DNA of 64,000 nt from an uncultured Gammaproteobacteria bacterium (GCA_964613815.1 CAZTKG010000003.1:125440-189439), one strand, 5' to 3'; counted from the first letter of the stretch, positions 45,954 to 64,000 are shown. A program made the numbers and translations. The notes: generated by a model not told the origin, from the sequence alone.

Positions 45954-46562
45954 ATGAAGCACCCGAAAAGTTTTCTTGCTGTCTTTGGTCTTTCTGCGCT
46001 GGCCCTTGTGATTCTTTTGACTCGGCCGGATGCGTCTGATTTGTTTACCATTGATGAGCCTCGGATTGGAGATGACCCGTTTTATGGCGCTGAAGATGCT
46101 GCTCTGACTGTTGTGCTTTTTGGGGACTTTGAGAGTGATGGGACACGCGATGCTGTAGAGTCTTTGCGGGATATTGTGGATGCGAATGACGACATTCGAC
46201 TTGTTTGGAAGGATTTTCCAAATGCTTCGCTGCACCCCGATGCGGTGAAGGCCGCTGTTGCTGCGCAGTGTGCGCATCGTCAGGATGTGTTCTGGGAGTA
46301 CGCAGCGTATCTTTTGGATAATCAGAACGCGTTTGGTGATGATCTTTACTATACGGTCGGTGATACGCTTGAGTTGAGGGCTCGGGCATTTGCGAACTGT
46401 GTTGAAAATGACGAGACCCTTGAGCTTATTGATGAGAGTTACCGAGAGGGGCTTGCGCTAAAGATTCTTAGCACTCCGACGATTTATATTGGCTCCGAGC
46501 GCTTCGCTGGTGAGATGACGGATCGTGATATTGCCTTGTTTATTGACGAACAACGACCATGA
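45954..46562 (+). CDS. DsbA-like thioredoxin-fold protein lacking the CxxC active site
   Basis: Signal peptide and DsbA-like fold pattern, but VVLFGDFESDG replaces the F.C..C motif. Confidence 0.5.
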   Translation: MKHPKSFLAVFGLSALALVILLTRPDASDLFTIDEPRIGDDPFYGAEDAALTVVLFGDFESDGTRDAVESLRDIVDANDDIRLVWKDFPNASLHPDAVKAAVAAQCAHRQDVFWEYAAYLLDNQNAFGDDLYYTVGDTLELRARAFANCVENDETLELIDESYREGLALKILSTPTIYIGSERFAGEMTDRDIALFIDEQRP

Positions 46563-47917: not shown

Positions 47918-49198
47918 ATGTATTCTTGTTCACATTGTGATTCTCAGTCGTTGAAGTGGCAGGGGCGTTGCTCTGAATGCGGGAAATGGGGGACGCTTCA
48001 GGAGGAGGCTAGGACTGGGAAGAAATCTACATCCAAACGGAGGGCGCCTGCAGCGCCTGTTTTGGATCTTGGGAGCGCGGTGATTGGGACGGAGACGCGG
48101 ACTTCTACGAAGATTGGAGAGCTCGATCGGGTCTTGGGAGGCGGGCTTGTTGCGGGGAGCGTGACGCTACTTGCTGGTGAGCCAGGGATTGGGAAGTCTA
48201 CGCTTACGGCTCAGCTTTCTTCGTTGTTTGGTTCTGATAAGGCGAAGACCCTTTATGTGAGTGGCGAGGAGTCTCAGGCGCAGGTCTTGATGCGGTTTCA
48301 GCGGCTTGGGATCGTGCCTGATGCGGTGGTGTTTAGTGGGGCTACGGATGTTGGGTCGATTGTTGCGGCGGCTGATGAGGTCTCCCCTGCTCTTCTTGTG
48401 ATCGATTCGATTCAGACGATGATTCCTGAAGGAATTGATAGTATGCCGGGGACGCCGACAGCGGTTCGAACGGCGACGGCGCAGCTGATTGGGCATGCGA
48501 AAACGTCTGGGATGCCGGTGGTTTTGATTGGTCAGGTGACGAAGGAGGGGTCTATTGCGGGACCGAAGACGCTTGAGCATTTGGTTGATACGCTTTTGAC
48601 GCTTGAGGGGGATCGGCATTCTAGTTATCGACTACTGCGCGCGAGTAAGCATCGGTTTGGAGGGACGGAAGAGGTTGGGATTTTTGAGATGATGGAGCGC
48701 GGGATGGTTGCGGTGGAGAATCCTAGTTCTCGGTTTTTGGAGGAGCGGCAGGATGTGACCGGGAGTGCGGTGACGTGTTTGATGGAGGGGTCTCGGCCCA
48801 TTTTGGTGGAGATTCAGGCGCTTTGTGAGCAGAGTCAGTATCCGAATCCTTTGCGGCGTGCGACGGGGTTTGATAGTGGGAGGCTGCAGATGCTTTTGGC
48901 GATCTTGAATAAACGCGCGGGGCTGAAGACGCATGGACTGGATGTGTATGTAAATGTGGTTGGCGGGGTGAAGATTAAGGAGACGGCGGCGGATTTGGCG
49001 GTTTGTGCGGCGATTTTGAGTTCTGTGAAGGATAAGGCGCTGCCGATGAAGGGGGTTTTGATTGGGGAGCTTGGGCTCAGTGGTGAGGTTCGGAGTGTGA
49101 CGCGGATAGCATATCGGGTGAAGGAGGCGAAGCGGTTGGGGTTTGATGCGGTGGAGGTGAAGCATGTGCGGGATTTGAAGGGACTGCTTGGGCAATAA
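47918..49198 (+). CDS. radA: DNA repair protein RadA/Sms
   Basis: N-terminal C4 zinc finger, RecA-like P-loop GEPGIGKST and a Lon-like C-terminal domain. Confidence 0.95.
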   Translation: MYSCSHCDSQSLKWQGRCSECGKWGTLQEEARTGKKSTSKRRAPAAPVLDLGSAVIGTETRTSTKIGELDRVLGGGLVAGSVTLLAGEPGIGKSTLTAQLSSLFGSDKAKTLYVSGEESQAQVLMRFQRLGIVPDAVVFSGATDVGSIVAAADEVSPALLVIDSIQTMIPEGIDSMPGTPTAVRTATAQLIGHAKTSGMPVVLIGQVTKEGSIAGPKTLEHLVDTLLTLEGDRHSSYRLLRASKHRFGGTEEVGIFEMMERGMVAVENPSSRFLEERQDVTGSAVTCLMEGSRPILVEIQALCEQSQYPNPLRRATGFDSGRLQMLLAILNKRAGLKTHGLDVYVNVVGGVKIKETAADLAVCAAILSSVKDKALPMKGVLIGELGLSGEVRSVTRIAYRVKEAKRLGFDAVEVKHVRDLKGLLGQ

Positions 49199-49232
49199 AA
49201 AACAACGAGTGATGAGCTCGTTGTTTTTTTAT
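49198..49232. terminator. bidirectional terminator between radA and recG
   Basis: aaaaaacaacgag-tgatg-agctcgttgttttttt. Confidence 0.55.
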
Positions 49233-51301
49233 TCGAAATGGACTTCTTCAATGTATTCTTCGACGCGTTCTGATAATGATGGCCACTTTTTTAGGGTTGG
49301 GTCGTCTGTGAGAATCCATTCTGCATGGTCTTTTGCCTTGTAGAGAAGCTCTCTGTCGGCGTAGGTGCCGAGTTTGAAGGCTTCGAAGCCGGACTGCTCT
49401 GTGCCGAAGATATTTCCTGGGCCGCGGAGTTCTAGGTCCTTGTCTGCGAGCTGGAAGCCATTTTGGCACCCGACAACGGCGATGAGGCGCTTGCGAGCGA
49501 GTTCTGATAGGCGGCCGGATGGATGGAGGTAGCAGTAGCTTTGGTGGTCGCCCCGCCCTACCCTTCCTCGGAGTTGGTGTAGCTGCGCGAGACCGAAGCG
49601 TTCGGCTCCTTCGATGAACATGACGGTGGCGTTTGGGATGTCTACGCCGACCTCTACCACCGTGGTGGAGATGACCATGTCTAGTTCGCCTGAAGAGAAT
49701 TTTTCCATGATCTCGTCTTTTTCCATGGTTTTGAGCTTTCCGTGGAGAATTCCGAGCTTGTATTTTTTGAATGGGCCTTTTTTGAAGATCGTGTAGGTTT
49801 CGGTGACAGATTTTACTCCGAGCGCGTCTGATTCTTCGATGAGGGGGCAGACGACGAAGACTTGGCGGCCGGCGTCCATTTCTTCTTTGATGCGCTTGTG
49901 AGCCTGCGGTTCTTGCCCCTGTTCGACGAGGAAGGTTTCGATTTTCTTGCGGCCTGCAGGGTATTCGTCTAATAGTGATCGGTCTAGGTCGCCGTAGAGG
50001 ACGAGAGCTAGTGATCTCGGGATTGGGGTTGCGGTCATGCTGAGGAGATGGGGGATGCCGTCTTCGTCGCCTTGGCGATCTTTGAGGGCTCGGCGCTGTT
50101 TGACGCCGAAGCGGTGCTGTTCGTCGACGATCATGAGACCTAGGCGGTTGAAGAGGACGCCTTCTGAGAGGAGTGCGTGGGTTCCGATGGCTAGGTCTAT
50201 TTTTCCATCTTTTAGTGCGTCAAGCATTTGTTTTTTGGTGACCTGCTTGCCTTTGATGCGGCGCTTTGTGCGTGTGAATAGGCCTATCGTGAGCATGTCG
50301 CCGAAGATTTTTTGTAAGCCTTTTGCGTGTTGGTCGGCAAGGATTTCTGTTGGGGCGAGGAAGGCGGTTTGCCAGGTTGAAGATGCGGCGTTTACTGCTG
50401 CGAGCGCTGCGACGACGGTCTTCCCTGTTCCAACGTCCCCCTCTAGCAACCTATTCATTGGGGTTTCCTTTTCTAGATCTTGGATGATGGACCAGCTGGA
50501 TCTTTTTTGGGCATCGGTGAGTTCGAATGGAAGAGCCTTTACCGCCTTTGTGACGGCAGGTTTGTTGAATGGGATTTTTGATGATTTTTGCTTTTGGAGC
50601 GCTCGGCGGACGCGGCGGTGGAGGATTTGATGGAGGAAGAACTCGTCGAATTTAAGACGATCTAGGGCGCGTTCCTGCTTTTCTGTTGAGGATGGGAAAT
50701 GCATCTCCTTGATTGCATCGTGGAGGGGCATGAATTCCTCGGACTTGATAATGTCTTGCGGCATCCATTCTTCGACCTCTTCGATGCCTTTTGTCGCCTC
50801 CTCTGCCAGGGCTCGGCGCATTTTTTGGGTGATTGCGCCGGTAAGTTTGTAAACCGGGAGGATTCTACCGGTTTGCTTGACGCTCTGCTGCTTGCCGAGG
50901 ACTTCGTAGATTGGGTTTACGAGCGAAAGGCCGTAGCGGTCGTCTACCTTTCCTGATAGGGACACGATCACGCCTGGTTTTAGGGTTTTTGTGAGGAAGC
51001 CTTGGTGGAACCAGACGGCTTTGATGGAGCCGGTACCGTCTTCGACCATGGCTTGTGTGATGGTCATTCGCGGGTTGTTTTTGGCGCGGCGGTTTTCGAT
51101 AGTTGCGATCGCGCCTTGGATCGTAATGCGCTCCCCTGCTGATACGCTGCTGATTTCTGTCTTTTTTGAGAGATCGTCGTAACGGAATGGGAAATCTAAT
51201 AAGGCATCTCTTAGGGAGACGATGCCTAGGCGCGCGAAATCTTTGGCGCGGGCGGCGCCGATTCCTTTTGCTCTTTGGATGTTTTTGTCGAGAAGAGGCA
51301 T
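49229..51301 (-). CDS. recG: ATP-dependent DNA helicase RecG
   Basis: Wedge domain, DEAD-box helicase motifs (GDVGTGKT, DEQHRFG) and a TRG motif. Confidence 0.95.
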   Translation of the reverse strand: MPLLDKNIQRAKGIGAARAKDFARLGIVSLRDALLDFPFRYDDLSKKTEISSVSAGERITIQGAIATIENRRAKNNPRMTITQAMVEDGTGSIKAVWFHQGFLTKTLKPGVIVSLSGKVDDRYGLSLVNPIYEVLGKQQSVKQTGRILPVYKLTGAITQKMRRALAEEATKGIEEVEEWMPQDIIKSEEFMPLHDAIKEMHFPSSTEKQERALDRLKFDEFFLHQILHRRVRRALQKQKSSKIPFNKPAVTKAVKALPFELTDAQKRSSWSIIQDLEKETPMNRLLEGDVGTGKTVVAALAAVNAASSTWQTAFLAPTEILADQHAKGLQKIFGDMLTIGLFTRTKRRIKGKQVTKKQMLDALKDGKIDLAIGTHALLSEGVLFNRLGLMIVDEQHRFGVKQRRALKDRQGDEDGIPHLLSMTATPIPRSLALVLYGDLDRSLLDEYPAGRKKIETFLVEQGQEPQAHKRIKEEMDAGRQVFVVCPLIEESDALGVKSVTETYTIFKKGPFKKYKLGILHGKLKTMEKDEIMEKFSSGELDMVISTTVVEVGVDIPNATVMFIEGAERFGLAQLHQLRGRVGRGDHQSYCYLHPSGRLSELARKRLIAVVGCQNGFQLADKDLELRGPGNIFGTEQSGFEAFKLGTYADRELLYKAKDHAEWILTDDPTLKKWPSLSERVEEYIEEVHFE

Positions 51302-51427: not shown

Positions 51428-51545
51428 CTATAAACACCTTTATTCACGGGGTTGTTCACAGATTTGTGGAAAAGTTATACACATTTTGTTCACGTTGACA
51501 TCCGGTTTTTTATTTACGTGTTCAAAAAGCTTAATGATTTGCCCG
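51428..51545. promoter_or_regulatory. cluster of six DnaA-box-like 9-mers followed by an AT-rich tract (candidate oriC or DnaA-regulated promoter)
   Basis: TTATCCACG, TTATTCACG, TTGTTCACA, TTTTCCACA (reverse), TTATACACA and TTGTTCACG within 76 bp, each 7-8/9 to TTATCCACA, followed by an AT-rich segment. Confidence 0.45.
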
Positions 51546-51556
51546 GTTGACTCTGT

Positions 51557-52204
51557 GTGGCTTATTTGATAATCCTGATTGGTGACCCTGGAGGCACTTT
51601 GTTCTTTTTTTTGACGATGCTTCTCCTGTCTCTCGGCGGCGCGGTTGCCGAGACTAGTCAGGCTGTGCAGGATGCCACCACCTTCTCGCCTGAGCCACAT
51701 GTTCGCCTTATTCTGCACGGGACGCGAGCCCCTGTGGAAGGTGGCGCTGTCGGACTTTCGGGCTGGGTGATCGCTCCCGACATTGGCAATGATCCGACCA
51801 AATGGGTGACGCTTGCAGGCCTACGGGTTGTGAATGATGTCTTGAGCCTTGAGTTCCATGGTGGACTCTTGAAGGCTGGCGACGGCACCGCCCACCTTCT
51901 GGACGTTCGCTTTGGCGCAGCGCCCAAGAACAGCCGGCTTTCGCACTGGAGCAATGTTCAGCTGATCATGGATCCGAGCGGCGAAGGCGGTGGCGGACTC
52001 TACTTCTACCATCAGTACGATCTGTCGATCTGGCTTGTCGCTATTGGGCTGGAGAACGAAAATCTCTTTACACGTGAAGCTGCGGGGATTGCGACAGGGC
52101 CCCACCTCGTGATTCCGCTTGGGAGCCTTACGATCGTCATGGCGCTCCAGTTTGACATGGCTCATGCCGAATACTTCTGGACCCGCGCTGTCCTGAACCT
52201 CTGA
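51557..52204 (+). CDS. hypothetical secreted protein (moderately high GC)
   Basis: Hydrophobic N-terminus, ORF only. Confidence 0.4.
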   Translation: MAYLIILIGDPGGTLFFFLTMLLLSLGGAVAETSQAVQDATTFSPEPHVRLILHGTRAPVEGGAVGLSGWVIAPDIGNDPTKWVTLAGLRVVNDVLSLEFHGGLLKAGDGTAHLLDVRFGAAPKNSRLSHWSNVQLIMDPSGEGGGGLYFYHQYDLSIWLVAIGLENENLFTREAAGIATGPHLVIPLGSLTIVMALQFDMAHAEYFWTRAVLNL

Positions 52205-52228
52205 CCCCCTCCTGGGGTTGTTTATGGC

Positions 52229-53074
52229 TCAAGTAAAGGACTTGGAACAAGTTAGCGCGTTTGCGAGGTAATAATGCCGAGACTCAAAGAGTCTCGGCAT
52301 GTTTTGTCTTGCCTCAAGCTCTCTCACGAGGTGCGGGAGCCAGTAGGCTCTCACCTGCTGGTACGTGCGACGTATGAAACGTTTAAGGACAGACCAAATA
52401 GCTTCAATGTGGTTTGTAGGGCCAAACTCAAATTTAGAGTGGATACAGACTTCATGCTTGTAGTTAAAGAACTCATGGATGCGGTTGTAACCGCTCCATC
52501 CGTCTGTGTAGACGGTGGAACCGGTCTTCACATGCTTAAGAAGAAATCTATCTGTCGTATCTTGCTCTCTGTTATCTGTGACAAAGAGGGCGACTCTCTT
52601 TGTCCCGCGTTCATACGCACCAATGACAATGCGCTGGTTACCGCTTCTCCTTCTTCCGACAAAAGCTTCGTCTACTTCTACATCCCCAGAAAGAATCTGG
52701 AGGTGTTCGTACGGAAGATGGTACTGGAACCTTCGGTACTATCTTCTGGCTGTCGGCACACTCACTCTTGCGAGTTCGCAAGCAGCGGGCAGAGCCCGCT
52801 GCTTCTGCCAGCAGTAGAGAAGGATCCAAAACTGTGTTCATGAGAGCTTCATTCCACTAAGCCATGAGACCGACGTGAGACTAAACGGCTTCCTGCAACT
52901 CGGACACCGGAATCTGCACTCACTTCTGCGAATATTAGATGAATTGCAGCGAGGACAGCGGATGCGCTGTCCAAACACTACTTTTCTGACAAAAGCCTTG
53001 ATCTTTCTTTCATTTGGAACCTCGTTTAGAATGGACATACGGAACAGTTGGTTATTTGTTAGCTGCACTAACAT
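52229..53074 (-). mobile_element. IS1595-family (ISXO2-like) transposase gene remnant with an internal deletion / frame break
   Basis: The N-terminal zinc ribbon (CPRCNSSN...CPSCRKPFSLTS) is in one frame. The DDE / C-terminal region (VEVDEAF...TDGWSGY...TNHIEAIWSVLKR) is in another, and only ~100 nt lie between them where ~300 are expected. Confidence 0.7.
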
Positions 53075-53181
53075 TGTAACCTCTGTTCCATTTCGATTAT
53101 ACGAGCCTGTTTATTTTGGATTGACAATCTGTGTAGTTCTGATATTGTTCGCTCCTGATCGATCTTTTTCTGGAGAAAATC

Positions 53182-53622
53182 TTGCCTGCACCCCGCTCCC
53201 CGTTCCCTGATCCGAATGTGTTTACTGCCCGTCGTGGCTTTGTGAGGATCTTTGGGTTCTCTGCCTGGATTGAGGATGGGCACTGGGTCCTTTCGCATCG
53301 CTCTGGGCACACCTCTACCTCCTCCCCTACTCCGGTTCACGAGCAGATTCAGGCTTCTATTGAGGAGGACATCTCTCGTGGTCGTGGAGATGATGTCTGT
53401 GCGGTTCACGTCTCGCCCGCTACGGCTGCTCGGCTGATTCTTGAGGGAGCGATCCCCGAGACTTCGCTTGCCGCAGCTGATACGCAACGACGTGCTGGAC
53501 GTGTCCTGATTCCGGATGTGACATTTGGGACGTCGCTTCGAGTGATGCGGCTTCCGGTGGTGGTTCGGCGAGGATACATTCACGTGTTCGCGACCGTGGA
53601 TGCGCGGGAGATTATTGTGTAG
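53182..53622 (+). CDS. hypothetical protein
   Basis: ORF in a high-GC region. Weak support. Confidence 0.25.
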   Translation: MPAPRSPFPDPNVFTARRGFVRIFGFSAWIEDGHWVLSHRSGHTSTSSPTPVHEQIQASIEEDISRGRGDDVCAVHVSPATAARLILEGAIPETSLAAADTQRRAGRVLIPDVTFGTSLRVMRLPVVVRRGYIHVFATVDAREIIV

Positions 53623-53654
53623 CGTGCGCTGGCTGATGCTGGCGCTTTTTTGTT

Positions 53655-53696
53655 TGGGAAAAAGAAAGACCCCGCGCTTGGCAGGCGCGGGGCCTG
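53655..53696 (-). terminator. rho-independent terminator after the acidic lipoprotein gene
   Basis: Minus strand GGCCCCGCGCC-tgccaa-GCGCGGGGTC followed by TTTCTTTTT. Confidence 0.45.
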
Positions 53697-53733
53697 ACCG
53701 AAGGCGGAGTAGGAGACTCCCTCGATCTGATCT

Positions 53734-54427
53734 ACTGTTCCAGGTGGACGATTCGCGTGACGTCGGAGCTGTTGATCCCATTGTAGGCGATGCTCGGGTC
53801 GGCGTCGCTCTCGAATGCGGGATCCTCCAGGGCGTACAGCGAGGCCTGGATGCCCACCCTCTCCTCGGTTCCGTAGAACGCACAGGAGAGAACGAAGGAT
53901 GTCGCGCTGGCGACCTCGTGGTCGAAGAAGACGAGGTCGGCCTGGATGTCTGCCGCGATGTCGACCGGAACGATGTCGACGGAGGAGTCTCCCCCGCCCT
54001 GGATCTCGTAGAGCTCGCACCAGTGGAGGTACTCGTCCGCGTTGAAGTCGCTGTCGGACTCGACCTAGTAGACGATGCCACTTGCGGAGAATCCATCCTC
54101 CTCGGTCGTGATGGCGTCGGCGGTGAGTCGCGCTTCGTCACCAGCTCCGTAGGAGATGGTGTCCAGGACGGACTGCGGGGTCATGTAGGCTTCGACCGGG
54201 ATGACGTCGACGGGGATGACGTCTCCGGTCTCGATGATCTCCTCCATCGTGTCGCCGTCCGTGTCCTCGGAGCAGAGGTCCGGGAACTCGGCGCAGAAGT
54301 CGTCGGCAGGAGGGGTGAGGTCGGAGATCGTGGCCTCGTCTGCGGTATCGGTCTCGACGTCGGTTGGGGCGAAGCGGCAGGCGGTGAGGGTGAGGAAGGT
54401 GATGATTGCGGGGAAACGGGTGGTCAT
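53734..54427 (-). pseudogene. high-GC acidic lipoprotein gene interrupted by an in-frame TAG at 54065-54067
   Basis: Lipobox LTLTAC after a signal peptide. The reading frame continues unbroken after the amber codon (...SGIVY*VESDSDFNADEY...) to a stop at 53734. TAG is a normal stop elsewhere in the window (rpmE, gyrB). Confidence 0.55.
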
Positions 54428-54478
54428 TTGACGCTCCGTGAGGGTTTTTGAAGGAAACAGTCGTTTGACTGATGCGCG

Positions 54479-54510
54479 CATGATAGCAGAAAAATGCCTT
54501 TTTGTCAATC
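54479..54510 (-). promoter_or_regulatory. conserved promoter block (TTGACAAAAAGGCATTTTTCTGCTATCAT)
   Basis: -35 TTGACA, 17-nt spacer, -10 TATCAT, about 50 nt upstream of the lipoprotein start. Confidence 0.5.
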
Positions 54511-54570
54511 AAAATGTCTTTAAAAAGCTGTTTTTATTAGGTTTTTCTGGTTATTTTTGTTCAAAAGTAC

Positions 54571-54604
54571 TTGACAAAACTTGGTTTTTGTGCTATTGTA
54601 TAGC
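54571..54604 (+). promoter_or_regulatory. conserved promoter block, plus-strand copy (TTGACAAAACTTGGTTTTTGTGCTATTGT), divergent from the previous one
   Basis: Same block architecture, driving 54669..55061. Confidence 0.45.
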
Positions 54605-54668
54605 TATTCTTTCACACCATTCTATTCGCTTTTTAGCGAAGGAGTCCCTCAAGAATCCCTCCATTGGC

Positions 54669-55061
54669 ATGCGTATCATGCGCTACTTCGAGATCATGAT
54701 GATGCTGAGCGCTGTCACCGCAGCTCTCCTCGCCTTCGGTCCTGTGATCGAAGACGCTGAGAACACGCAGCGCGCACTGCATCAGCAGCGTGCGGAGCGG
54801 CGCGTGATCGATGAAGTCGCCATCAAGGCAGCTACCGAGTCAATCGCTACCTTCTCACGCTACTACAGCGCCTGCGAGTTCGAGGCCCTGCAGAACCAGC
54901 TGGTCGCTGTTAGCGGCGGTCGGCAGGTTACGCAACACAGCATCAAACTCATGCGGAATGCGGCACACAGTGCTCGTCTCGCTGGCGCACCTGCTAATAT
55001 CGTAGCCCTGCACCTCGACCGTGCCGGACAGCTTCACCGCTTCGCCTCCAGCCACCACTAA
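54669..55061 (+). CDS. hypothetical secreted protein (high-GC)
   Basis: Signal-peptide-like MRIMRYFEIMMMLSAVTAALLAFG. The start was moved to the internal Met. Confidence 0.4.
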   Translation: MRIMRYFEIMMMLSAVTAALLAFGPVIEDAENTQRALHQQRAERRVIDEVAIKAATESIATFSRYYSACEFEALQNQLVAVSGGRQVTQHSIKLMRNAAHSARLAGAPANIVALHLDRAGQLHRFASSHH

Positions 55062-55090
55062 CCACAAACATCAACGCATGGTACGCGAAG

Positions 55091-55396
55091 ATGCGTACCG
55101 GCGTCGTTCGAACCACTCTGCAGCGTCAGCTCCCCCACCTCACCAAGGAGTTCGAGATGGAGGTGCGCTCCGCCCTCCTTCCCGGACTCGCCGGTGATCA
55201 GAAGGCGGCGTTCTCCCGCGTTCGCCGGCTCGGCAACGACCCGGGTCGCCAGCTCGAGAACGCCAACGTTCTCGTCCGGATGGCGGCTCAGTCGGAAGAT
55301 GCCGACATGGAGCTGCTGACCGACATCGACACGCGTCGACGACGGCTCGTGCGTCTGGTTCGCCTGGCCGATGCCGGGCACCTGATCTGGCAGTAG
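55091..55396 (+). CDS. hypothetical protein (high-GC)
   Basis: ORF only. Confidence 0.25.
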   Translation: MRTGVVRTTLQRQLPHLTKEFEMEVRSALLPGLAGDQKAAFSRVRRLGNDPGRQLENANVLVRMAAQSEDADMELLTDIDTRRRRLVRLVRLADAGHLIWQ

Positions 55397-55412
55397 CCCT
55401 CGCCCTCGCCTC

Positions 55413-55450
55413 ACGGCGCAGCTTCACCGCTGCGCCGTTTTCTTTTTATT
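55413..55450. terminator. bidirectional terminator
   Basis: ggcgcagc-ttcacc-gctgcgcc followed by gttttcttttt. Confidence 0.45.
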
Positions 55451-55895
55451 CTGGCGCGTAAACTCCTATGAGCTCAGCTTTTTTGATGATTGCCCCCTCC
55501 ATTGCCTCTTCTACCTCTTTTTTTGATGCTCCCTCAGGGAGATCAAGCATTTTACTCAGTGCGTAGAGCTTGAAAAAATATCTATGTTCACGGTCGGGCG
55601 GCTTTGGGCCGGAGTAGTCCAGATACCCGCGCGTTCCCTTCCCTTTTACGCCCTCGACTTCCCAGTTTTCTGGGATGGATGTGATGTGCGGCGGGATGTT
55701 GAATACGGTCCAGTGATCCCAAACGTCTACCGGGGCGTATTCTGGGACGTCGGGGTCGTCTACGATGAGGGCTAGCGATATCGTGCCCTCTGGAATGTTT
55801 GTGATTTCTAGCGGCGGGCTGATGTCTTCTGCGAATTGGGTGTATTTTCTTGGGATTGTTTGACCTTGGTTGAATACCGGAGATGTAATTTGCAT
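55446..55895 (-). CDS. YbhB/YbcL-family phosphatidylethanolamine-binding protein (PEBP)
   Basis: DPDVP..AP...HW and HRYFFKLYAL motifs of bacterial PEBPs. The start was moved to MQITS. Confidence 0.75.
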   Translation of the reverse strand: MQITSPVFNQGQTIPRKYTQFAEDISPPLEITNIPEGTISLALIVDDPDVPEYAPVDVWDHWTVFNIPPHITSIPENWEVEGVKGKGTRGYLDYSGPKPPDREHRYFFKLYALSKMLDLPEGASKKEVEEAMEGAIIKKAELIGVYAPE

Positions 55896-55906
55896 AAAAT
55901 GTCTTA

Positions 55907-55937
55907 AAATCCCCCGCCCTTTCAGGCGGGGGATTTG
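55907..55937. terminator. rho-independent terminator
   Basis: aaaatcccccgcc-ctttca-ggcgggggattt. Confidence 0.5.
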
Positions 55938-55957
55938 TGAATGGATTTTGGTTCTAT

Positions 55958-56275
55958 TTATTTTTTCACCCCTCTCTTTCGCTTTTGCGTGAAGTAGTAG
56001 ACAAGCGCAGCGGGTCCGGAGAGGAAGATGATGAGCGCGATCCACATTCCCTTTTCTTTTTCTTGGTTTTGGATGGCGTCTATGAGCATCCAGAGCCAGA
56101 AGGCTACGAGCGCGAGCCCGATAAGGACTCCGAGGATCGGGATGATGACGAGCCAGCCGGGGACATCTGGGCATGGGACTTCTTCGCCGTTTACTCTGCA
56201 GGTTGCGGCGAGAGCGAACTTGGAGCTTGCCAGGAAGAGCGCGAGGGATGTGAGGGAGGTTTTTAAGGTGTTCAT
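55958..56275 (-). CDS. small membrane protein with PLDc_N-like C-terminal segment
   Basis: Signal peptide plus a WMLIDAI...KGMWIALIIFLSGPAALVYYF motif. Confidence 0.45.
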   Translation of the reverse strand: MNTLKTSLTSLALFLASSKFALAATCRVNGEEVPCPDVPGWLVIIPILGVLIGLALVAFWLWMLIDAIQNQEKEKGMWIALIIFLSGPAALVYYFTQKRKRGVKK

Positions 56276-56370
56276 GGTACGTGGTTAAAAATTGGTTTTA
56301 TTTTAGCATTTTTCGTGCCTTTGTTCGAATCCCCTTTCCATGCAAAAAGACTCCACGAGTGGAGTCTTTT

Positions 56371-56460
<90 letters not shown>

Positions 56461-56502
56461 GTGTTTGATTTTCAATACCCCCTTAGCTCGGATGGCGCCG
56501 GA

Positions 56503-56600
56503 AAAATGCTCTGTAATCGGTTTTCTGAGAGCAGCGCAGTAAGGCGTATAGACAATACGTCGTCGAGCAGCGCAGCAGAAAAACGATTACAGAGTATTTT
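56503..56600. repeat. long imperfect inverted repeat (25-nt arms) in the tRNA-Arg/tRNA-Ser spacer
   Basis: AAAATGCTCTGTAATCGGTTTTCTG ... CAGAAAAACGATTACAGAGTATTTT (2 mismatches), with the inner direct repeat gagcagcgcag x2. Confidence 0.7.
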
Positions 56601-56613
56601 ACCAAGCCAGCCG

Positions 56614-56690
56614 TGGCGCGCTCGGCAGGGCTCGAACCTGCGACCTCTGGCTCCGCAAGCCAACGCTCTATCCAACTGAGCTACGAGCGC
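56614..56690 (-). tRNA. tRNA-Arg (anticodon read as GCG)
   Basis: Cloverleaf GCGCTCG...GGTTCGAGCCC...CGAGCGC-G-CCA with A20 in the D-loop and anticodon loop TTGCGGA. Confidence 0.75.
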
Positions 56691-56695
56691 ACGGT

Positions 56696-57208
56696 TCAGA
56701 ATTTATACAGTCTTCGCATGTGATCTGTCAAGGTTTCTTCCTCTCTGTCGAGGTTCTCGAAAACGAAGTTTAGCAAGGTTTCGCGGAGGATATTTGGGTC
56801 CATGTCTTCGACGGGAATATGGAGAAGCGGCTTCCACATGCGGAGAAAGTCGATGTACAGAATTTTGGCCACTCCTGGCTGGTAAACAATGGAGAAGTCT
56901 TTCATTTCTTCGTACGGGAACCAGTGGTCGTCGTAGACGATGCCGGCATCTGTGACAATAATGTTGATACGCTCTGGCTTTTTTGAGTGGTCAAGAATGA
57001 TGAGGAGCCCCATCATGAGGACAATGGTTGCAAAAAGGAAGTTCGCCGAGGCGATTGCGTATACTAAGAATAGACCGCCAATGATTCCGGCGGTGATATA
57101 CCACCTGCGTGAATGGTCGTGAGGTGGACGATCCCAGGTCTCCCAGGCGAGTAGCGCTTCGCCGACATCGATCTCTTCCATCTCCGGTTCCTTGGTTTCT
57201 TTTGCCAT
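56696..57208 (-). CDS. hypothetical membrane protein
   Basis: Two TM helices, ORF only. Confidence 0.45.
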   Translation of the reverse strand: MAKETKEPEMEEIDVGEALLAWETWDRPPHDHSRRWYITAGIIGGLFLVYAIASANFLFATIVLMMGLLIILDHSKKPERINIIVTDAGIVYDDHWFPYEEMKDFSIVYQPGVAKILYIDFLRMWKPLLHIPVEDMDPNILRETLLNFVFENLDREEETLTDHMRRLYKF

Positions 57209-57281
57209 GCCTGCAGTATACCAGAGTTAGGACTTGAAATCAGGAGCGGTTTAGGATATAACTGTGCTACGTTTAATGAAT

Positions 57282-57371
57282 GGAGAGGTGCCGGAGCGGT
57301 CGAACGGGGCACCCTGCTAAGGTGTTAGGTCTTCACGGGCCTCGAGGGTTCGAATCCCTCCCTCTCCGCCA
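57282..57371 (+). tRNA. tRNA-Ser (anticodon GCT)
   Basis: Cloverleaf with anticodon loop CTGCTAA, long variable arm, GGTTCGAATCC T-arm and a 3' CCA. Confidence 0.85.
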
Positions 57372-57375
57372 GGAA

Positions 57376-57405
57376 AAGGACTTCGCTTTTGCGGAGTCTT
57401 TTTTG
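57376..57405 (+). terminator. rho-independent terminator after tRNA-Ser(GCT)
   Basis: aaaggacttcgc-tttt-gcggagtctttttt. Confidence 0.55.
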
Positions 57406-57437
57406 TTTGGAATAAAACAACGCAGTACTTGACTGCG

Positions 57438-57860
57438 TTACTGTTTCGGACCGGTGCCCCCTGGGAAGATTCGGTCCCCCGCATCCCCGCGGAACGTGAT
57501 CTCGCAAGGTTGGTGATTGATCTGGAACGTGATCGTACCATCTGTTGATCCAGGCACCGGAAATCGGCGAATGCGGATCATGGCCGTTGTGACCTCTGCG
57601 CGTGCGATGTGTTTGGCGGTGAGAATGCCCTCGAGGAACATTCGAACGGCGATTTCTGGCGATACTGTGACCGTTCTGACTCGCTCGCTTCTGATCCCTG
57701 TGATCGCAGCTCGAAGCTGACTACTGACCGGCTCTGGATCAAGCGTGATACTCTCCCCTGACGGCGTTTCGAGACGAAATTCGCGACCACATTCGGTGAA
57801 TCCGTGATATCCATAGAATGAGGCACTTAGGATGACGATTGGGCGTCCTGATCTTCGCAC
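57438..57860 (-). CDS. hypothetical protein
   Basis: ORF only. Confidence 0.35.
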   Translation of the reverse strand: MRRSGRPIVILSASFYGYHGFTECGREFRLETPSGESITLDPEPVSSQLRAAITGIRSERVRTVTVSPEIAVRMFLEGILTAKHIARAEVTTAMIRIRRFPVPGSTDGTITFQINHQPCEITFRGDAGDRIFPGGTGPKQ

Positions 57861-57912
57861 TTTCCCTCCATTAAGGAACGTTCGGTGATGATGCCGTCTT
57901 GATGACTTGTTG

Positions 57913-58557
57913 TCAATCTTTTCCTTGCGCTAGGGTGTATATTTTGATGTTTTCTTGGCCGTTTGTTGCCAAGGTTTGCATGGCAGCCCTTGTGGTTGCG
58001 CCGGTTGTGAAGACGTCGTCTATGAGGAGTATTCCCGACTCTTCTGCGAGCTCTTTTATGTATTTGAATGGTGAGCTTCTCATTGCCTCAACCCTTCCCT
58101 TCTCTGTTTGCTCCGTTTGTCTCTGTGTACTTCTTTTTCTTGAAAGCGCGTGTCTGACGGGAATCTTTGTGTGTTCTGATAAGAATGAAGCGAGTTCTTG
58201 TGCTTGATCGAAGCCTCTTTCTGCCTTTCTGGCGAAATGTAGTGGAATTGGGATGAGCGCGCTGACCCTGTGGACCTCTATGTAATGCTCTAGCCAACTC
58301 AGGTTTGGGATGAGCTTTTTTTGGAGGATGTGCCAAGCTGATTCATCGAAATGGTATTTCCAGGCTTTGATGAGGTCTCTTGCAATTGGGTCTGCGTAAG
58401 AAAACGAGGCGACGGCGCCGGAGTCTGATTGAATGAAGGAATTTTGTAAGATCCAGGATTGTTCGCAGGAAGCGCACAGGAGCGCACCTTCGGCTTTGCA
58501 GGCGACGCAAAAACGCGGGAAGACCGCGTTTTTTAGGTTTTCGATGAATGCTTTCAT
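57913..58557 (-). CDS. comFC: ComF-family phosphoribosyltransferase (competence protein ComFC)
   Basis: N-terminal C4 zinc finger (CVACK...CASC) and a PRTase motif LLIDDVFTTGAT. Confidence 0.75.
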   Translation of the reverse strand: MKAFIENLKNAVFPRFCVACKAEGALLCASCEQSWILQNSFIQSDSGAVASFSYADPIARDLIKAWKYHFDESAWHILQKKLIPNLSWLEHYIEVHRVSALIPIPLHFARKAERGFDQAQELASFLSEHTKIPVRHALSRKRSTQRQTEQTEKGRVEAMRSSPFKYIKELAEESGILLIDDVFTTGATTRAAMQTLATNGQENIKIYTLAQGKD

Positions 58558-58560
58558 GGT

Positions 58561-59112
58561 CTACTCCCAGGTGAAGTCGTCTACGAGCCAGGAATTGCCT
58601 GATTTGATGAGTGAGAGTGTTAGTTTTTGTGTTGTTGTTGTTGAGTTTGCAGGGGATCCGATAGATTCTGTGCGTTGGGTTTGGATTTCTACGACGGATA
58701 CCTCCTCTGTTTCTGACGTGGTTTCCATGGATAGGACGCGGGTGGACATCCCCTGGTATTCGTCGGATGCGGATGCCTGCGCTGAGGCTGCGATGGACTC
58801 TAGGCGGTCTTTGAGTGCCTCTGTTGCGATGGACATGACGTCTGTGACGTTTGCGAAGTCTCCTTGGCTTGAGTAGCTTCCAAAGCGCTCTGCGAAGGTT
58901 CTGGCGATGGTTTGGGCAGCGATATCGACAGGTTCTTTCGTGATTTCTGGGATTTCTGCTGGCTCGCCGGTGATTTCTGTTTCTACAGGCTGAGATGGAA
59001 CCGGCTCTTCGATGATTTGTGGCTCTGGGCGGAGGAGAAGCCAAATGATAATGACGAGCGCGATGAGAATCGCGATCGCGATGAGCATTTCTTTTTTGTG
59101 TCTGGATTCCAT
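58561..59112 (-). CDS. membrane-anchored hypothetical protein adjacent to VirB4 (possible VirB8/PrgL-like)
   Basis: N-terminal TM helix, acidic linker and an ~110-aa globular C-terminal domain. The family assignment is a guess. Confidence 0.45.
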   Translation of the reverse strand: MESRHKKEMLIAIAILIALVIIIWLLLRPEPQIIEEPVPSQPVETEITGEPAEIPEITKEPVDIAAQTIARTFAERFGSYSSQGDFANVTDVMSIATEALKDRLESIAASAQASASDEYQGMSTRVLSMETTSETEEVSVVEIQTQRTESIGSPANSTTTTQKLTLSLIKSGNSWLVDDFTWE

Positions 59113-59145
59113 ACGCGACGCGCAGGGCGCGGTTAATGCTGAAGA

Positions 59146-61191
59146 TTAGCTCGGCGTTTGTGAGGTCGGGGCCTCGCTGGCGGCGGGAGGTTGTCCGTTT
59201 TCCGGTGGAGCTGTGTCGGGGATTGGTTCTGGGATTTCCGGTTGCGCTGGTTCTGATGGTTGCTGTGCTTCCTGCGCCTCCTTTTCTGCGAGAGATTCTT
59301 CGAATTCTTTTCTTGCTCGCTCGATTTCTAAGAGCTGTTCTGGATTTGTGGTGATGAGTTGATCTTCTGCGTAGCTGGCGATGACTTTAACGGCCGCGTG
59401 ACGCTTTCCGGCGAAGAAGATCCCTTCCCCCACAGATGCATCGATGAGGAGGTAGCGCTCTGACTGCGTGAGGTTGAATGTTTTTGCGATCGCGTCTACG
59501 CCTGCGGTGGACTGCTTCATGAGGAGCTGCATGGCGGAGTTTGTCACGATTGCGTGACCGTATTGGTTGCGCAGGAAGTCGTTTACGTCCTGTGTGATCG
59601 TTGTGACGCCTAGGTAATATTTGCGGGCACGTTTTACGAGGCCGAAGATGAATTTGGATGCGTCTTCGTGCTGCATGAGCCACCAAGCCTCGTCGATTGC
59701 TAGGAGGCGTTTTTTGCGCTCTGAGCGGACGACGTTCCAGATGTAGTTGACGATAGAGTAAATAGCCATTGGGCGGAGCTCATCTTCTAGATCTCGTACG
59801 GAGTAGACAACGAGCTGGTTGTCCATTTTGACTGTGGTTGGGTAGTTGAGGAATCCTGCGAATGTTCCTTCGGTGAATTTTTGGAGTCTTGAGACGAGAT
59901 CCCCTGTTTCTTCCATACCTTCTAAAACCTCTTGCAGGTCTTGCATGACCGGGTATTCTGCTGATGCTAAGTCTTTTGCTGAGAGGTCTGGAGTGATGTC
60001 TTTTTTGGCGTAAGCTTCGATAATGGCTCGGTCTAGAGTGGAATCTTCTTTTGGCGTGAAGCCGTTTTTACCCCCCTCTCCGACTGGTTGGCCGATCATG
60101 ATACGGAGAAGACCCTTTAGTGTAATGATCGCGCTTCGGAGGATGTCTTCTGTTGAGGTGTCTTCCCCCATTGGTCGTGGGAGGTCGAAGGGGTTGATCT
60201 TGCTCTCTGACCCGAGAGAGACGTTGACGAATGTGCCTCCGACCGCGTCTGAGAGGGTGCGATACTCCATTTCTGGGTCAATGACGATGACCTCTACGCC
60301 CATCATCATGGAGCGCAGGATTTCTAGCTTGATCGCGTAGGACTTTCCTGCACCAGACGTCGCGAAAACGACTGCGTTTGCGTTTGCGAGGGAGAACCGG
60401 TCAAAGATGATGAGGGAGTTGTTGTGGCGGTTTATCCCGTAGAGAATCCCTTTGTCGCTCGTGAGGTCAGATGAGATGAATGGGAATGACGACGCGATTG
60501 GCGACGTGTTCATGTTGAACGAGATCATGAGCTCGTCGTTTCCGATTGGCATGGTGGAGTTGAAGCCCTGCTCTGCCTGGTAGAAGCCGCGTTTTGTAAA
60601 AATGAGACGGGAACCGAAAACGGATTCCATTTCTTCTGTCCGTTTTCCTAGCTCTTCTTCTGAATCTGCGTAAATTGTTACGTAAAATGCGAATTGGAAA
60701 AAGTGCTCCGTTCCTTGCGTGAGGTCGTCTCGTAGCTGCTCCATGTCTCGAAGGGCGGTTTCTTGGATTGGGTCTCTTGGAGCGCCTTTTTCGTTGTCGC
60801 TGACGATTTGCGCCTCTGCGATACCTACCTTGTTCTTGAGCTGCTTGAGAATGACGGCTGCTTTTACTGGGTAAAAGAACATGCCGATGTCGATGGTTCC
60901 GTTGTAGTTGATGATTGGGGCGCCCCATCCTACCCCTACGTATCGTGGGTATGTCGTCACAAATAGTGTGCGGACGTATTTTGATCCGAGTCGGAGGAAG
61001 TCTGGGTTTACCTGGAATGCTGCCGGCGCAATGAGGTCACGTATGGTAACGGTTCCAATTCTATACGTGCGCTCGTCTTCGAGCGTTGCTTGGTCGGCGA
61101 TCTTTTTCTCCTCTTCTTCAGACGTCTTCTTTGGCGGAGGAGCTTTTTTGGCCTTTTTTTCTTTTTGTAGTTTGTGAATGTCGATCGACAT
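59146..61191 (-). CDS. type IV secretion system ATPase, VirB4/TrbE/CagE family
   Basis: Walker A FATSGAGKSY and Walker B RLLAIDEAWWLM (the DEAW motif of VirB4). Length and domain order are typical, with a Glu/Pro/Gln-rich C-terminal tail. Confidence 0.85.
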   Translation of the reverse strand: MSIDIHKLQKEKKAKKAPPPKKTSEEEEKKIADQATLEDERTYRIGTVTIRDLIAPAAFQVNPDFLRLGSKYVRTLFVTTYPRYVGVGWGAPIINYNGTIDIGMFFYPVKAAVILKQLKNKVGIAEAQIVSDNEKGAPRDPIQETALRDMEQLRDDLTQGTEHFFQFAFYVTIYADSEEELGKRTEEMESVFGSRLIFTKRGFYQAEQGFNSTMPIGNDELMISFNMNTSPIASSFPFISSDLTSDKGILYGINRHNNSLIIFDRFSLANANAVVFATSGAGKSYAIKLEILRSMMMGVEVIVIDPEMEYRTLSDAVGGTFVNVSLGSESKINPFDLPRPMGEDTSTEDILRSAIITLKGLLRIMIGQPVGEGGKNGFTPKEDSTLDRAIIEAYAKKDITPDLSAKDLASAEYPVMQDLQEVLEGMEETGDLVSRLQKFTEGTFAGFLNYPTTVKMDNQLVVYSVRDLEDELRPMAIYSIVNYIWNVVRSERKKRLLAIDEAWWLMQHEDASKFIFGLVKRARKYYLGVTTITQDVNDFLRNQYGHAIVTNSAMQLLMKQSTAGVDAIAKTFNLTQSERYLLIDASVGEGIFFAGKRHAAVKVIASYAEDQLITTNPEQLLEIERARKEFEESLAEKEAQEAQQPSEPAQPEIPEPIPDTAPPENGQPPAASEAPTSQTPS

Positions 61192-61194
61192 AGG

Positions 61195-61905
61195 CTAGAA
61201 TCCTTCTTCAATGCGTAATTCGCTTACGTCGTTTAGTTTTTGACGATCGAATGTGTGCGGGTTGTACACTGTGTAATACAGCTCAATGAGCCCCTGCGTG
61301 TCTAGGATAGCGTTTTTTAGGCCCATTCCAGTAAGTCCACCTTGTACAATGGAAACGCGTTGCATAAGAGACTTTCGGCGGTCTTGGAACTTCTTTTCTG
61401 AGAGCTTTACGACCGATGCCGGCATGATCGCCTCTGAGAGACGTGTCATGAATCCAATCTTCTTGTCTGTCGCTGCATCGAACGGGACGACGACAAAGAA
61501 GCGCTTTTGCATGATTTCGCCAAGGTCTACGAGCTCGTTAATGAACGAGCGATAGTCTTTGATTTGCGCCCTCAGGAGCTCATTTGTCATCTTTGCCTCT
61601 TGCTCGTTTAGACTTTGAATGTAGCTGTCAATGTTCATCTTTCGTGACTGGATCACGATTTGGATTGGGTATTCTAGGCCGTTCAAAAACTGCATGTAGG
61701 ATTGGATCATGGCCTGCTGCTCGTCTACGGATTTGAGCGCGAAATTGACGCTTGAAACCATGATAACCGCTCGGAGTGTCCCATCTTTTAAGACGACTGC
61801 ATCTTCTCGAATCTCTGCGATGTCCAAAAATCGCTGAGTTGGTGGGCCAACCTTTGATTTTGCCAACTTTTTGGACTGCATTTCTTTTTTCTTTTTGTCG
61901 GCCAT
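61195..61905 (-). CDS. type IV secretion-associated protein resembling the VirB4 N-terminal (membrane-proximal) domain
   Basis: LDIAEIREDAVVLKDGTLRAVIMV parallels IRDLIAPAAFQVNPDFLRLGSKYVRTLFV at the N-terminus of the adjacent VirB4. Confidence 0.45.
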   Translation of the reverse strand: MADKKKKEMQSKKLAKSKVGPPTQRFLDIAEIREDAVVLKDGTLRAVIMVSSVNFALKSVDEQQAMIQSYMQFLNGLEYPIQIVIQSRKMNIDSYIQSLNEQEAKMTNELLRAQIKDYRSFINELVDLGEIMQKRFFVVVPFDAATDKKIGFMTRLSEAIMPASVVKLSEKKFQDRRKSLMQRVSIVQGGLTGMGLKNAILDTQGLIELYYTVYNPHTFDRQKLNDVSELRIEEGF

Positions 61906-61906
61906 A

Positions 61907-62347
61907 TTATTTGTGATCTTCTGGGTTGTAGATTCCGCCGGTGTTTACCACAAGTGAGAGCTCTGAGAGTCTTGATTTTGGGACCTTCCTCTTTGTCGGG
62001 GGCGGGATTTCTTTTTCTTTTTTCTCTTTTTTTAGCCTTGCCTTGATTTGCCCCGTTGTGAGTGCCTTGTCCCACACGCGCACCATTGGACGCCTGAACG
62101 TTAGTACCATGTTGAGAACGATGAAATGAAATGGCTGCCCATTTACTTTTACGAATGCAAATACGATTCCTATCGCAAGGACAGGTAGGCCGACCGCGAG
62201 CAAGGCAAATATGTTGAGGATTAGCTTGTAGAGAAGCGCCTCGACAAGAACAACGCCAATCATGATGAGGAACTGCCTCATGGTGACTGGGCCGATGATC
62301 TTTGTTTCTACGTCGAGAAATTGTGGTACGACAAATTGATCTGGCAT
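61907..62347 (-). CDS. PrgI / VirB3-like small membrane protein
   Basis: VPQFLDVETKIIGPVTMRQFLIMIG followed by two TM helices. Position immediately upstream of VirB4, as in Gram-positive-type T4SS. Confidence 0.5.
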   Translation of the reverse strand: MPDQFVVPQFLDVETKIIGPVTMRQFLIMIGVVLVEALLYKLILNIFALLAVGLPVLAIGIVFAFVKVNGQPFHFIVLNMVLTFRRPMVRVWDKALTTGQIKARLKKEKKEKEIPPPTKRKVPKSRLSELSLVVNTGGIYNPEDHK

Positions 62348-62370
62348 ATTTCTTCCCTTGCATTATAGCA

Positions 62371-64000
62371 CTATGCAAGCTGAATACGTTTGTTGAGCTC
62401 TACGATGGCACGCACCTCTGCGGGACTGAGACTTTCCTCGCCTTTTGCGCGGCGGCTAGATGCGACTTCGGAGACCGATCTTCCTTGCACGAGCGCTGCC
62501 TTGGTCATGCGCACATATAGGCGATTTATTGGACTTTTTCGCCATGCAAGTACCGCCTTTACTCTGTCTTCGTATCCCTGCTCTTCGATGAGATCTAGCT
62601 TGTCTTCTATCTTTTGTATTGCCTCCATTGGATCGCTTGAGAGTCTACGGAACTGCTTTGGGGTCATGGTACCAACTTCCTCTGTTGGACCCATGAGCTT
62701 TGGGGTTGCGACGACGTCGGCGATCCTGCCCTTCTTTTGCGGTGGGGCGCTCTGGTTGCTAAGTCGTGCTTTTGCTTTTTTGGGCTTTTCTGGTGTTTTG
62801 GCGTGAACGATAAACTCTGGCTCGAGCTTGTTGTGATGAAGCTCTAGCTCTTCTTCGTGCGATCTTGCCGCACTGACTCGACCGATTGGATGTATGCTGT
62901 TGATTTTTTCTTTTGAAGCTGCGCCGGTGAGCTTGGCGTGACGCGCGTTTATAACGACACGTTCTTTCTGGGCTGTAGTCGATGTTTTCTGTGTCTTTTT
63001 TGGGATTTTTTTGTATGCCGCCTCCACTGCTTGGCGTGCCTGTTTTGCTGCTGACGTGAGTTCTAACACTTGATCTTGCGCGACTTTGTAGCGAGACTCG
63101 AACAGTGCCCGCAGTTGACGCTCGGATCTTCGGCCGCGGATATGGGAGGCGAGGAGGTCTTTTGCTGCTGGAATTGGGATTTTGTATTTTCTGAGCGTTG
63201 TTCTGACCCCGCTTAGCGCACGATCGGTACAGACGTCGATCACCTTTGTGTATTGGTCATTTTTTGTCTTTTTTGCTGCTGATGCGTGCGCCTTTAGCTC
63301 TTCGTGCTCGTGGTCGTGCAAAAGATTGCCAGCGATTACTGGCGTCGTGGTGGAAAGCGCTGTTTCGGTGTGTGGGACGATGGCAGTTGAGCGGAGAGGC
63401 GGTTGCTTTTTTGCGGGCCCAGCCACGGGGCTTGGAGCAGGTTTTTGCTTTTCCTGCTTGATCTTGGGAGCGATTACCCTCGTTGCTTTTTTGATGACTT
63501 TTTTCGGCTTTGGCTCTGGTGGGAGTGGTGGGAGTGGTCTGATCGCTCCAGCGCGTCTTTTGACTACTGATGTCTTTGCTTGTTTTGCCGGTTTTGATTT
63601 TGGCGCTGGCTCTGATGGTTTCTTGATCTTCTTTTTTTCCTGTGGCTGAGCGGGGGCGTTTAGCTTTTGTTGCTTAGGTGTTCTTGCCGCTGTTGAGCTA
63701 GATGTTTTCTGCTCTTCTTTTCGGACTTTCGGAGCAGGCTTCTTTGGCTTTTGAGGCTCTTGCTCCTGTGCCGATACCTTCGCCGGGTCGAATCGCGTTG
63801 CTTTGATTTTTTCTATTGCTGATAGGTCGATCTTTTCTTCCAGCTCTTTGATGAGCTTTTGCGACTGCGCTTCGTCTAATCCTAGCCCTCCTACCATGAG
63901 TGGGCGCTCCATGAGAGTTATCGTTGCCTCTTTTGCTCTCTTTTTTTCGAGATAGCCCTTTGCAATGTAGACAAAGCGCTTTGTGAGGCGTTCTGGGAGA
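62371..64000 (-). CDS. Lys/Pro-rich low-complexity protein, 5' end beyond window
   Basis: The frame stays open upstream of the annotated Met to the window edge (...LPERLTKRFVYIAKGYLEKKRAKEATITLMERP...). Long basic PK-rich region. Confidence 0.45.
   Translation of the reverse strand, partial: LPERLTKRFVYIAKGYLEKKRAKEATITLMERPLMVGGLGLDEAQSQKLIKELEEKIDLSAIEKIKATRFDPAKVSAQEQEPQKPKKPAPKVRKEEQKTSSSTAARTPKQQKLNAPAQPQEKKKIKKPSEPAPKSKPAKQAKTSVVKRRAGAIRPLPPLPPEPKPKKVIKKATRVIAPKIKQEKQKPAPSPVAGPAKKQPPLRSTAIVPHTETALSTTTPVIAGNLLHDHEHEELKAHASAAKKTKNDQYTKVIDVCTDRALSGVRTTLRKYKIPIPAAKDLLASHIRGRRSERQLRALFESRYKVAQDQVLELTSAAKQARQAVEAAYKKIPKKTQKTSTTAQKERVVINARHAKLTGAASKEKINSIHPIGRVSAARSHEEELELHHNKLEPEFIVHAKTPEKPKKAKARLSNQSAPPQKKGRIADVVATPKLMGPTEEVGTMTPKQFRRLSSDPMEAIQKIEDKLDLIEEQGYEDRVKAVLAWRKSPINRLYVRMTKAALVQGRSVSEVASSRRAKGEESLSPAEVRAIVELNKRIQLA

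Follow-up and report, generated by a model that had tools for sequence, protein, structure and literature searches.

A type IV secretion gene cluster that ends in comFC

The window analysed here, a 64,000-nt stretch from an uncultured Gammaproteobacteria bacterium (GCA_964613815.1 CAZTKG010000003.1:125440-189439) whose positions serve as coordinates throughout, carries at its end six consecutive minus-strand open reading frames (ORFs; within 57913-64000, intergenic gaps of 1-33 nt) that encode components of a type IV secretion system (T4SS) and a competence protein. An original prediction, made from the sequence alone, had described a minus-strand operon for a T4SS of the Gram-positive or candidate phyla radiation (CPR) type lying next to comFC, and all of the ORFs that it described were found on that strand. 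With the genes beyond the window end included, the order is a VirB6-like protein with an M23 peptidase, a Lys/Pro-rich protein, PrgI/VirB3, a TrsD-like protein, VirB4, a VirB8-like protein and ComFC. A promoter and terminator scan of 56600-64000 gave counts that did not exceed the shuffled expectation. For comparison, we used related loci from 80 GTDB species representatives, named as Uhrbacteria, Magasanikbacteria, Falkowbacteria and Buchananbacteria; L-numbers below denote such related loci or contigs.

The first of the six genes encodes a Lys/Pro-rich cytoplasmic protein (62371-64000, minus strand), which the ORF scan called at 62371-63912 (513 aa). The original prediction was right about its presence, but the frame stays open up to base 64000, and an identical sequence on a 199-kb metagenomic contig (L002) contains the full gene (7499-9535, 678 aa), so the gene runs past the window end. 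The 678-aa protein has no match in Pfam, NCBIfam or the PDB; it was located by tblastn at the equivalent position in 73 of the 80 related loci and is a conserved member of the operon. The next gene (61907-62347, minus strand) encodes a small PrgI/VirB3-like membrane protein of 146 aa with two transmembrane helices. Its predicted PrgI identity was borne out by a hidden Markov model (HMM) search, where it scored above the cutoff of Pfam PF12666 (E = 1.1e-7, 32.7 bits, cutoff 27), and its gene lies directly upstream of the TrsD-like gene in 78/80 related loci.

VirB4 is encoded in two pieces

The 681-aa protein encoded at 59146-61191 (minus strand) is a VirB4 ATPase, as had been proposed. It exceeds the cutoff of the Gram-positive-type NCBIfam CD1110-family VirB4 model (341 bits, cutoff 325) and matches Pfam P-loop_TraG (E = 1.4e-21), and both its Walker A motif (GAGKS, G280-S284) and the predicted DEAW Walker B motif (D500-W503) are kept in at least 95% of 75 orthologues. 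The matches span positions 184-729 of 752 in the CD1110 profile and 280-890 of 894 in the VirB4_plasma/Mbov_0397 VirB4 profile, leaving the protein without the first ∼180-280 positions of full-length VirB4 profiles.

Those positions are found in the preceding gene, which lies 3 nt upstream of virB4 and encodes a 236-aa TrsD/TraC-like protein (61195-61905, minus strand). This protein matches positions 92-233 of the 894 in the Mbov_0397 profile (E = 5e-11) and positions 2-116 of the 752 in the CD1110 profile. The two proteins map to non-overlapping parts of the same two profiles and are therefore complementary: virB4 is encoded in two pieces, and the 236-aa protein is the N-terminal sub-domain absent from the 681-aa ATPase, here a separate polypeptide. 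Fold comparison, the structural check on this assignment, gave a VirB4 fold for the 236-aa protein. When the profile of the TrsD-like family was searched against PDB sequences there was no match, and the link to VirB4 structures came from the fold comparison. The same arrangement of parts is visible in an unsplit 790-aa VirB4 from Enterococcus, whose gene lies directly after PrgI: residues 18-93 of this protein are covered by the TrsD-like profile, and alignment with the 681-aa protein begins near residue 206.

The 236-aa protein also matches the TrsD/TraD family NF041427, with 24.4 bits (E = 2.2e-5) against a curated cutoff of 200 bits, so the protein is homologous to that subfamily without being a member of it. 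A live Pfam scan returned no family for the protein, whereas precomputed annotation places PF26593 (TraC-like) on it and on every listed homologue; this discrepancy reflects differing tool libraries and not biology.

The original prediction had left open whether the N-terminal domain of VirB4 was split off or duplicated, pointing to a parallel between the N-terminus of the 236-aa protein and that of the adjacent VirB4. The second possibility, that the 236-aa protein is an extra copy of a domain still present in the ATPase, drew on the similar Lys-rich N-termini and the similar order of strands and helices that had been noticed in both proteins. The parallel did not hold up in direct comparison. 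BLASTP found no similarity between the two proteins (best E = 0.35, in an unrelated region), and when profiles of the two families were made from the window sequence plus the related loci and compared with hhalign, the probability was 1%. With the complementary profile coordinates added to these results, we reject a duplication, which we consider very improbable; the split stands.

Nor is the split an assembly artefact, because the homologues are uniformly short and the TrsD-like protein has an ORF of its own, 206-267 aa long, in 80/80 species-level relatives. More than 3000 homologues of the 236-aa protein were found, and among the 120 listed all were 226-238 aa long, one being an identical copy and the other 119 sharing 63-78% identity with it. 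In two related loci, the TrsD-like gene and virB4 are separated by inserted DNA: 7.4 kb in L074 (10650-18100), with nine ORFs of 245-481 aa among which there are no Pfam-recognisable genes, and ∼1.2 kb in L073 (10670-11890). Adjacency of the two VirB4 halves is therefore not obligatory. Altogether, the TrsD-like sub-domain was seen in three architectures, namely free, fused to VirB4 and fused to PrgI/VirB3, which would fit a docking role between VirB3/PrgI and the VirB4 ATPase.

A VirB8-like protein recognised by its predicted fold

Downstream of virB4, the 183-aa protein encoded at 58561-59112 (minus strand) had been called VirB8/PrgL-like by position. HMM searches did not recover this relationship: the protein has no match among the Pfam and NCBIfam VirB8/PrgL models, and its matches to NTF2-like families are weak (E ∼0.005-0.09). 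An AlphaFold2 model built on a 137-sequence alignment (predicted local distance difference test score, pLDDT, of 93) combines an N-terminal transmembrane helix and a linker with three helices and a sheet of four strands, and the best match to this predicted fold is to VirB8 proteins. The single N-terminal transmembrane helix, the Pro/Glu-rich linker and an extracytoplasmic NTF2-like domain of the VirB8 type would together give the protein the bitopic topology of VirB8. From its modelled fold and gene position, we are confident in designating it VirB8-like, which agrees with the assignment by position. A word-based search found only four relatives of this protein, while exhaustive HMMER searching found 1937 cluster representatives, with lengths of ∼180-200 aa among the 150 matches listed. 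The VirB8-fold assignment thus applies to a large family that evolves fast and is mostly missed in searches by sequence.

Components beyond the window end and beyond comFC

On contigs with the same sequence, the region upstream of the Lys/Pro-rich gene encodes a polytopic membrane protein of 1015-1041 aa and a 615-aa M23 peptidase. We regard the membrane protein as the VirB6 component because 4 of 32 orthologues of its N-terminal domain match Pfam TrbL/VirB6 (best E = 8.8e-7); a profile of this domain found nothing meaningful in the PDB. Inspection past position 64000, which the original prediction had proposed in a search for VirB6 and VirD4, therefore uncovered the former by way of orthologues, and no VirD4 was found within 10 kb.

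Further components lie on the other side of the cluster. A plus-strand gene at 46559-47911 encodes a secreted 450-aa protein in which a VirB2-like pilin domain (residues ∼120-201) is fused to an M23 peptidase domain (∼283-359), based on matches to Pfam T4SS_pilin (E = 7.8e-10), TrbC/VirB2 (E = 8e-5) and Peptidase_M23 (E = 4e-7) and to the NCBIfam Mbov_0395 pilin-like family (E = 3.4e-7). It adjoins radA (47918-49198, plus strand) and recG (49229-51301, minus strand), both identified with Pfam. Pilin homologues occupy the same relative place beyond radA in seven related loci; the fusion to M23 is kept in L042, where a pilin-only paralogue lies beside it, and elsewhere only the pilin part was matched. 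The 450-aa protein is probably a pilin and cell-wall hydrolase component of the same T4SS. A different candidate for a VirB2-like pilin, a 105-aa protein with a signal peptide and two transmembrane helices (55958-56275), was rejected, as it matches PLDc_N instead.

A fixed chromosomal locus without mobility genes

The T4SS genes share the window with core genes that include prfA, prmC, ftsW, gyrB, gatB, thrS, dnaE, pheS/T, a Mur ligase gene, glmM and clpC, and with three tRNA genes. The original prediction had stated that the window holds no relaxase or coupling protein, which was upheld by Pfam scans of 31 ORFs in the window, 24 of which encode at least 280 aa. It had also named the presence of either gene just outside the window as grounds for reclassifying the locus as an ordinary integrative conjugative element (ICE), and none was found in the 10 kb past the window end, which hold only the VirB6-like protein, the M23 peptidase and secreted proteins. 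A tblastn screen for type IV coupling proteins (T4CPs) and relaxases, with three queries of limited reach, gave no match in the window and 82 loci.

Homologues of the TrsD-like protein come from named Uhrbacteria or other Patescibacteria, in line with the predicted CPR type. The order VirB6-like, Lys/Pro-rich, PrgI, TrsD, VirB4, VirB8-like and ComF is kept in every long-enough locus among the 80, and the run is often continued by a 170-aa membrane protein, RecG, RadA and a pilin gene. In the published survey of Quiñonero-Coronel et al. 2025 (PMC12102498), VirB4 was present in 2417 of 3035 Patescibacteria genomes, and most of these proteins form one clade nested in the mating-pair formation type FATA (MPF-FATA). 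PrgI/VirB3, VirB6 and VirB2-like pilins are widespread in Patescibacteria, M23-containing hydrolases occur, and VirB4, TrsD, PrgI and VirB6 are found without a relaxase across the group. VirB8 was described as rare and almost confined to the class ABY1, with ∼50 homologues found by sequence. The survey further reported comF, recG and radA as common in the T4SS locus of ABY1 and suggested functional coordination.

These observations bear on whether the cluster could be part of an ordinary ICE or plasmid whose relaxase and coupling protein lie outside the window. The closest families of its proteins are those of Gram-positive conjugation systems (CD1110, Mbov_0397, TrsD and PrgI), and many plasmid VirB4 proteins match at 26-36% identity. 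The content of the 10 kb past the window, the lack of a T4CP or relaxase match by tblastn and the core housekeeping genes argue the other way, as does the same gene order, comF and recG included, across 80 species with no mobility-type variation in the flanks. Relaxases are also almost absent from Patescibacteria, being found near virB4 in only 15 genomes (PMC12102498). An ordinary ICE is excluded because the gene order is shared across related species representatives, in a housekeeping context, and we give next to no credence to the cluster being part of an ICE or plasmid.

We therefore consider it highly probable that the cluster is a chromosomal, non-conjugative T4SS of Patescibacteria, derived from MPF-FATA and with the ABY1-type arrangement of Uhrbacteria and their relatives. 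Several points weigh against this assignment. The screen for coupling proteins was limited, one could be encoded elsewhere in the genome, and most T4CP homologues of Patescibacteria do lie far from virB4 (PMC12102498). The VirB6-like protein of the window lineage itself has no direct family match, and the suggested placement in the published Patescibacteria clade draws on homologue taxonomy and gene context. Any function of the cluster is also extrapolated from Saccharibacteria and would hold here by analogy.

Possible roles of the T4SS and of ComFC

In a saccharibacterium, Wang et al. 2023 (PMC10633639) found by transposon sequencing (Tn-seq) that T4SS genes are essential for epibiotic growth, and that T4SS is without a coupling protein and relaxase. 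Patescibacteria are very abundant, ultra-small bacteria, and their T4SS is one of only a few machines on which their epibiotic lifestyle is known to depend. For the window cluster, the leading view is a host-interaction or transport machine and not a DNA donor, because the cluster keeps a fixed place among housekeeping genes in 80 species and has no relaxase or coupling protein near it. A non-conjugative role had been suggested by the original prediction and agrees with the published view (PMC12102498). Following the architecture of the R388 T4SS and general knowledge of T4SSs, which supply both the mechanism and the order of assembly, PrgI/VirB3 and the free N-terminal sub-domain would dock the VirB4 hexamer onto a VirB6/VirB8 membrane platform. 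ATP hydrolysis by VirB4 would then power the building of a VirB2-like pilus, the transfer of a substrate through the single membrane and the wall, or both; the M23 peptidases could open the wall locally, and the VirB2-like pilin may assemble into a filament.

A further possibility is raised by the gene that ends the operon. ComFC (57913-58557, minus strand) is a ComF-family phosphoribosyltransferase-like competence protein of 214 aa that matches TIGR00201 comF (E = 3.7e-24) as well as Pfam Pribosyltran and DZR_2. Its gene starts 3 nt past that for the VirB8-like protein, confirming the predicted adjacency, and in all related loci of sufficient length (65 of 80), comF is the gene immediately after those of the T4SS. 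The four zinc-finger Cys residues and the phosphoribosyl pyrophosphate (PRPP) loop of ComFC are kept in at least 90% of 64 species. Among the related loci that reach far enough, 20 have RecG and 12 have RadA.

This conserved neighbourhood, and the functional coordination proposed for it (PMC12102498), would suit a T4SS-based DNA-import machine like Helicobacter ComB or archaeal Ced, which passes DNA to ComFC, RadA and RecG. VirB4 also has a weak match to the CedB DNA-import ATPase (E = 1e-10), which lies far under the model cutoff, as does a match to CedD. However, gene adjacency is weak evidence of a common function in a streamlined genome, and adjacency to comF is reported only for ABY1 (PMC12102498). 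In the one patescibacterium tested, a saccharibacterium, competence requires ComEC and type IV pili; a loss of the former leaves its viability unaffected (2025 review, PMC12857230), whereas the T4SS is essential (PMC10633639). What makes the T4SS essential there is therefore something other than DNA uptake via ComEC. On balance, DNA import appears an unlikely function for the window cluster, and we favour a host-interaction or transport machine.

The conserved gene order does allow a more specific proposal, which we put forward tentatively and regard as doubtful: that the ABY1 T4SS could be coupled physically and functionally to ComFC, co-transcribed from the end of the operon and with radA and recG nearby, for monoderm DNA import or exchange at the interface between epibiont and host. 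If true, ABY1 would have a competence pathway driven by its T4SS and separate from the route through type IV pili and ComEC known from Saccharibacteria. The tight and conserved link to comFC makes this a concrete, testable hypothesis for ABY1.

A variable region between recG and comFC

Just downstream of comF, the window encodes a 170-aa protein with two transmembrane helices (56696-57208, minus strand) that has no family match and is present at this position, on either strand, in 31/80 related loci. This gene and recG adjoin in several relatives, and in the window they are separated by ∼5.4 kb (∼51500-56600). IS1595-type transposase fragments (52229-53074) occur in the intervening region, as does a GC-rich segment (53068-54512) in which both strands contain long, overlapping ORFs; two tRNA genes, a PEBP-family gene and a PLDc_N mini-protein complete it. 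Its gene calls vary among contigs L001-L004, which are near-identical in other respects, and it resembles a variable hotspot for insertions.

Comparison with known systems

The Trs/Tra system of the Staphylococcus plasmids pGO1/pSK41 (TrsC-TrsD-TrsE), the prototype of MPF-FATA, likewise has a small TrsD, a homologue of the N-terminus of VirB4, just upstream of the VirB4 ATPase and beside a VirB3-like protein. Unlike the window cluster, pGO1 is a plasmid that conjugates and has both a relaxase and a coupling protein, and the 236-aa protein is only a distant relative of TrsD. The best-scoring VirB4 families (Mbov_0397 and CD1110) and the pilin-like Mbov_0395 are those of the Mycoplasma ICE and Clostridioides conjugative transposon (CTn)-type T4SSs, but these have a single VirB4 of ∼750-900 aa that includes the TrsD-like region, along with VirD4-like coupling proteins and relaxases. 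On Enterococcus pHG52, PrgI precedes VirB4 as in the window, whereas a T4CP and a relaxase lie beside virB4. An Embleya sp. plasmid (NZ_CP108778) encodes a 349-aa 'PrgI family protein' (L089, 3383-4432) with a TrsD-like sub-domain at residues 125-248 (hhalign E = 2e-11); this VirB3-TrsD fusion lies upstream of a short VirB4 and, unlike the window cluster, has a T4CP and a relaxase-like gene nearby.

The closest plasmid-borne VirB4 (34% identity) is encoded on a megaplasmid of Pontibacillus sp. ALD_SL1 (NZ_CP062975, 351-361 kb; L087). Here too virB4 is split, with a 274-aa TrsD homologue (hhalign E = 1e-26) encoded directly upstream of a 621-aa VirB4, and the cluster also comprises a pilin-like gene, a large membrane protein (779 aa), a VirB3-like protein and a 1050-aa M23 peptidase. 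The split is therefore not specific to the CPR. This replicon of 898 kb is typed as non-mobilizable, and the cluster may represent another non-conjugative use of this type of T4SS outside the CPR; it differs from the window in its Bacillota host, in lying beside flagellar genes, and in having no comF and no annotated VirB8-like gene.

Within Patescibacteria, the T4SS of Southlakia epibionticum ML1 (SEML1_0006-0019; PMC10633639) resembles the window cluster in being of the monoderm type, with VirB2-like pilins and no recognisable coupling protein or relaxase, and epibiotic growth requires its TrsD, PrgI, VirB6 and VirB4 homologues. By contrast with the window cluster, which comes from an uncultivated organism, it belongs to the class Saccharimonadia, contains an array of six pilin genes, does not lie beside comF and has no reported structural VirB8 homologue. 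The closest counterpart is the ABY1 T4SS (PMC12102498), which shares VirB4, TrsD, PrgI/VirB3, VirB6, VirB8, a VirB2-like pilin and M23-type hydrolases with the window cluster; it is likewise chromosomal, has no nearby relaxase or T4CP, and has comF, recG and radA in its neighbourhood. There is no essential difference between the two. The system is therefore real but already described, including its comF/recG/radA neighbourhood, and the window provides a clean example of the published ABY1 arrangement rather than a new kind of system. To that description, our analysis adds the complementary coordinates of the split VirB4, the three architectures in which the TrsD domain occurs, the fusion of a pilin to M23, and both the predicted fold and the size of the VirB8-like family.

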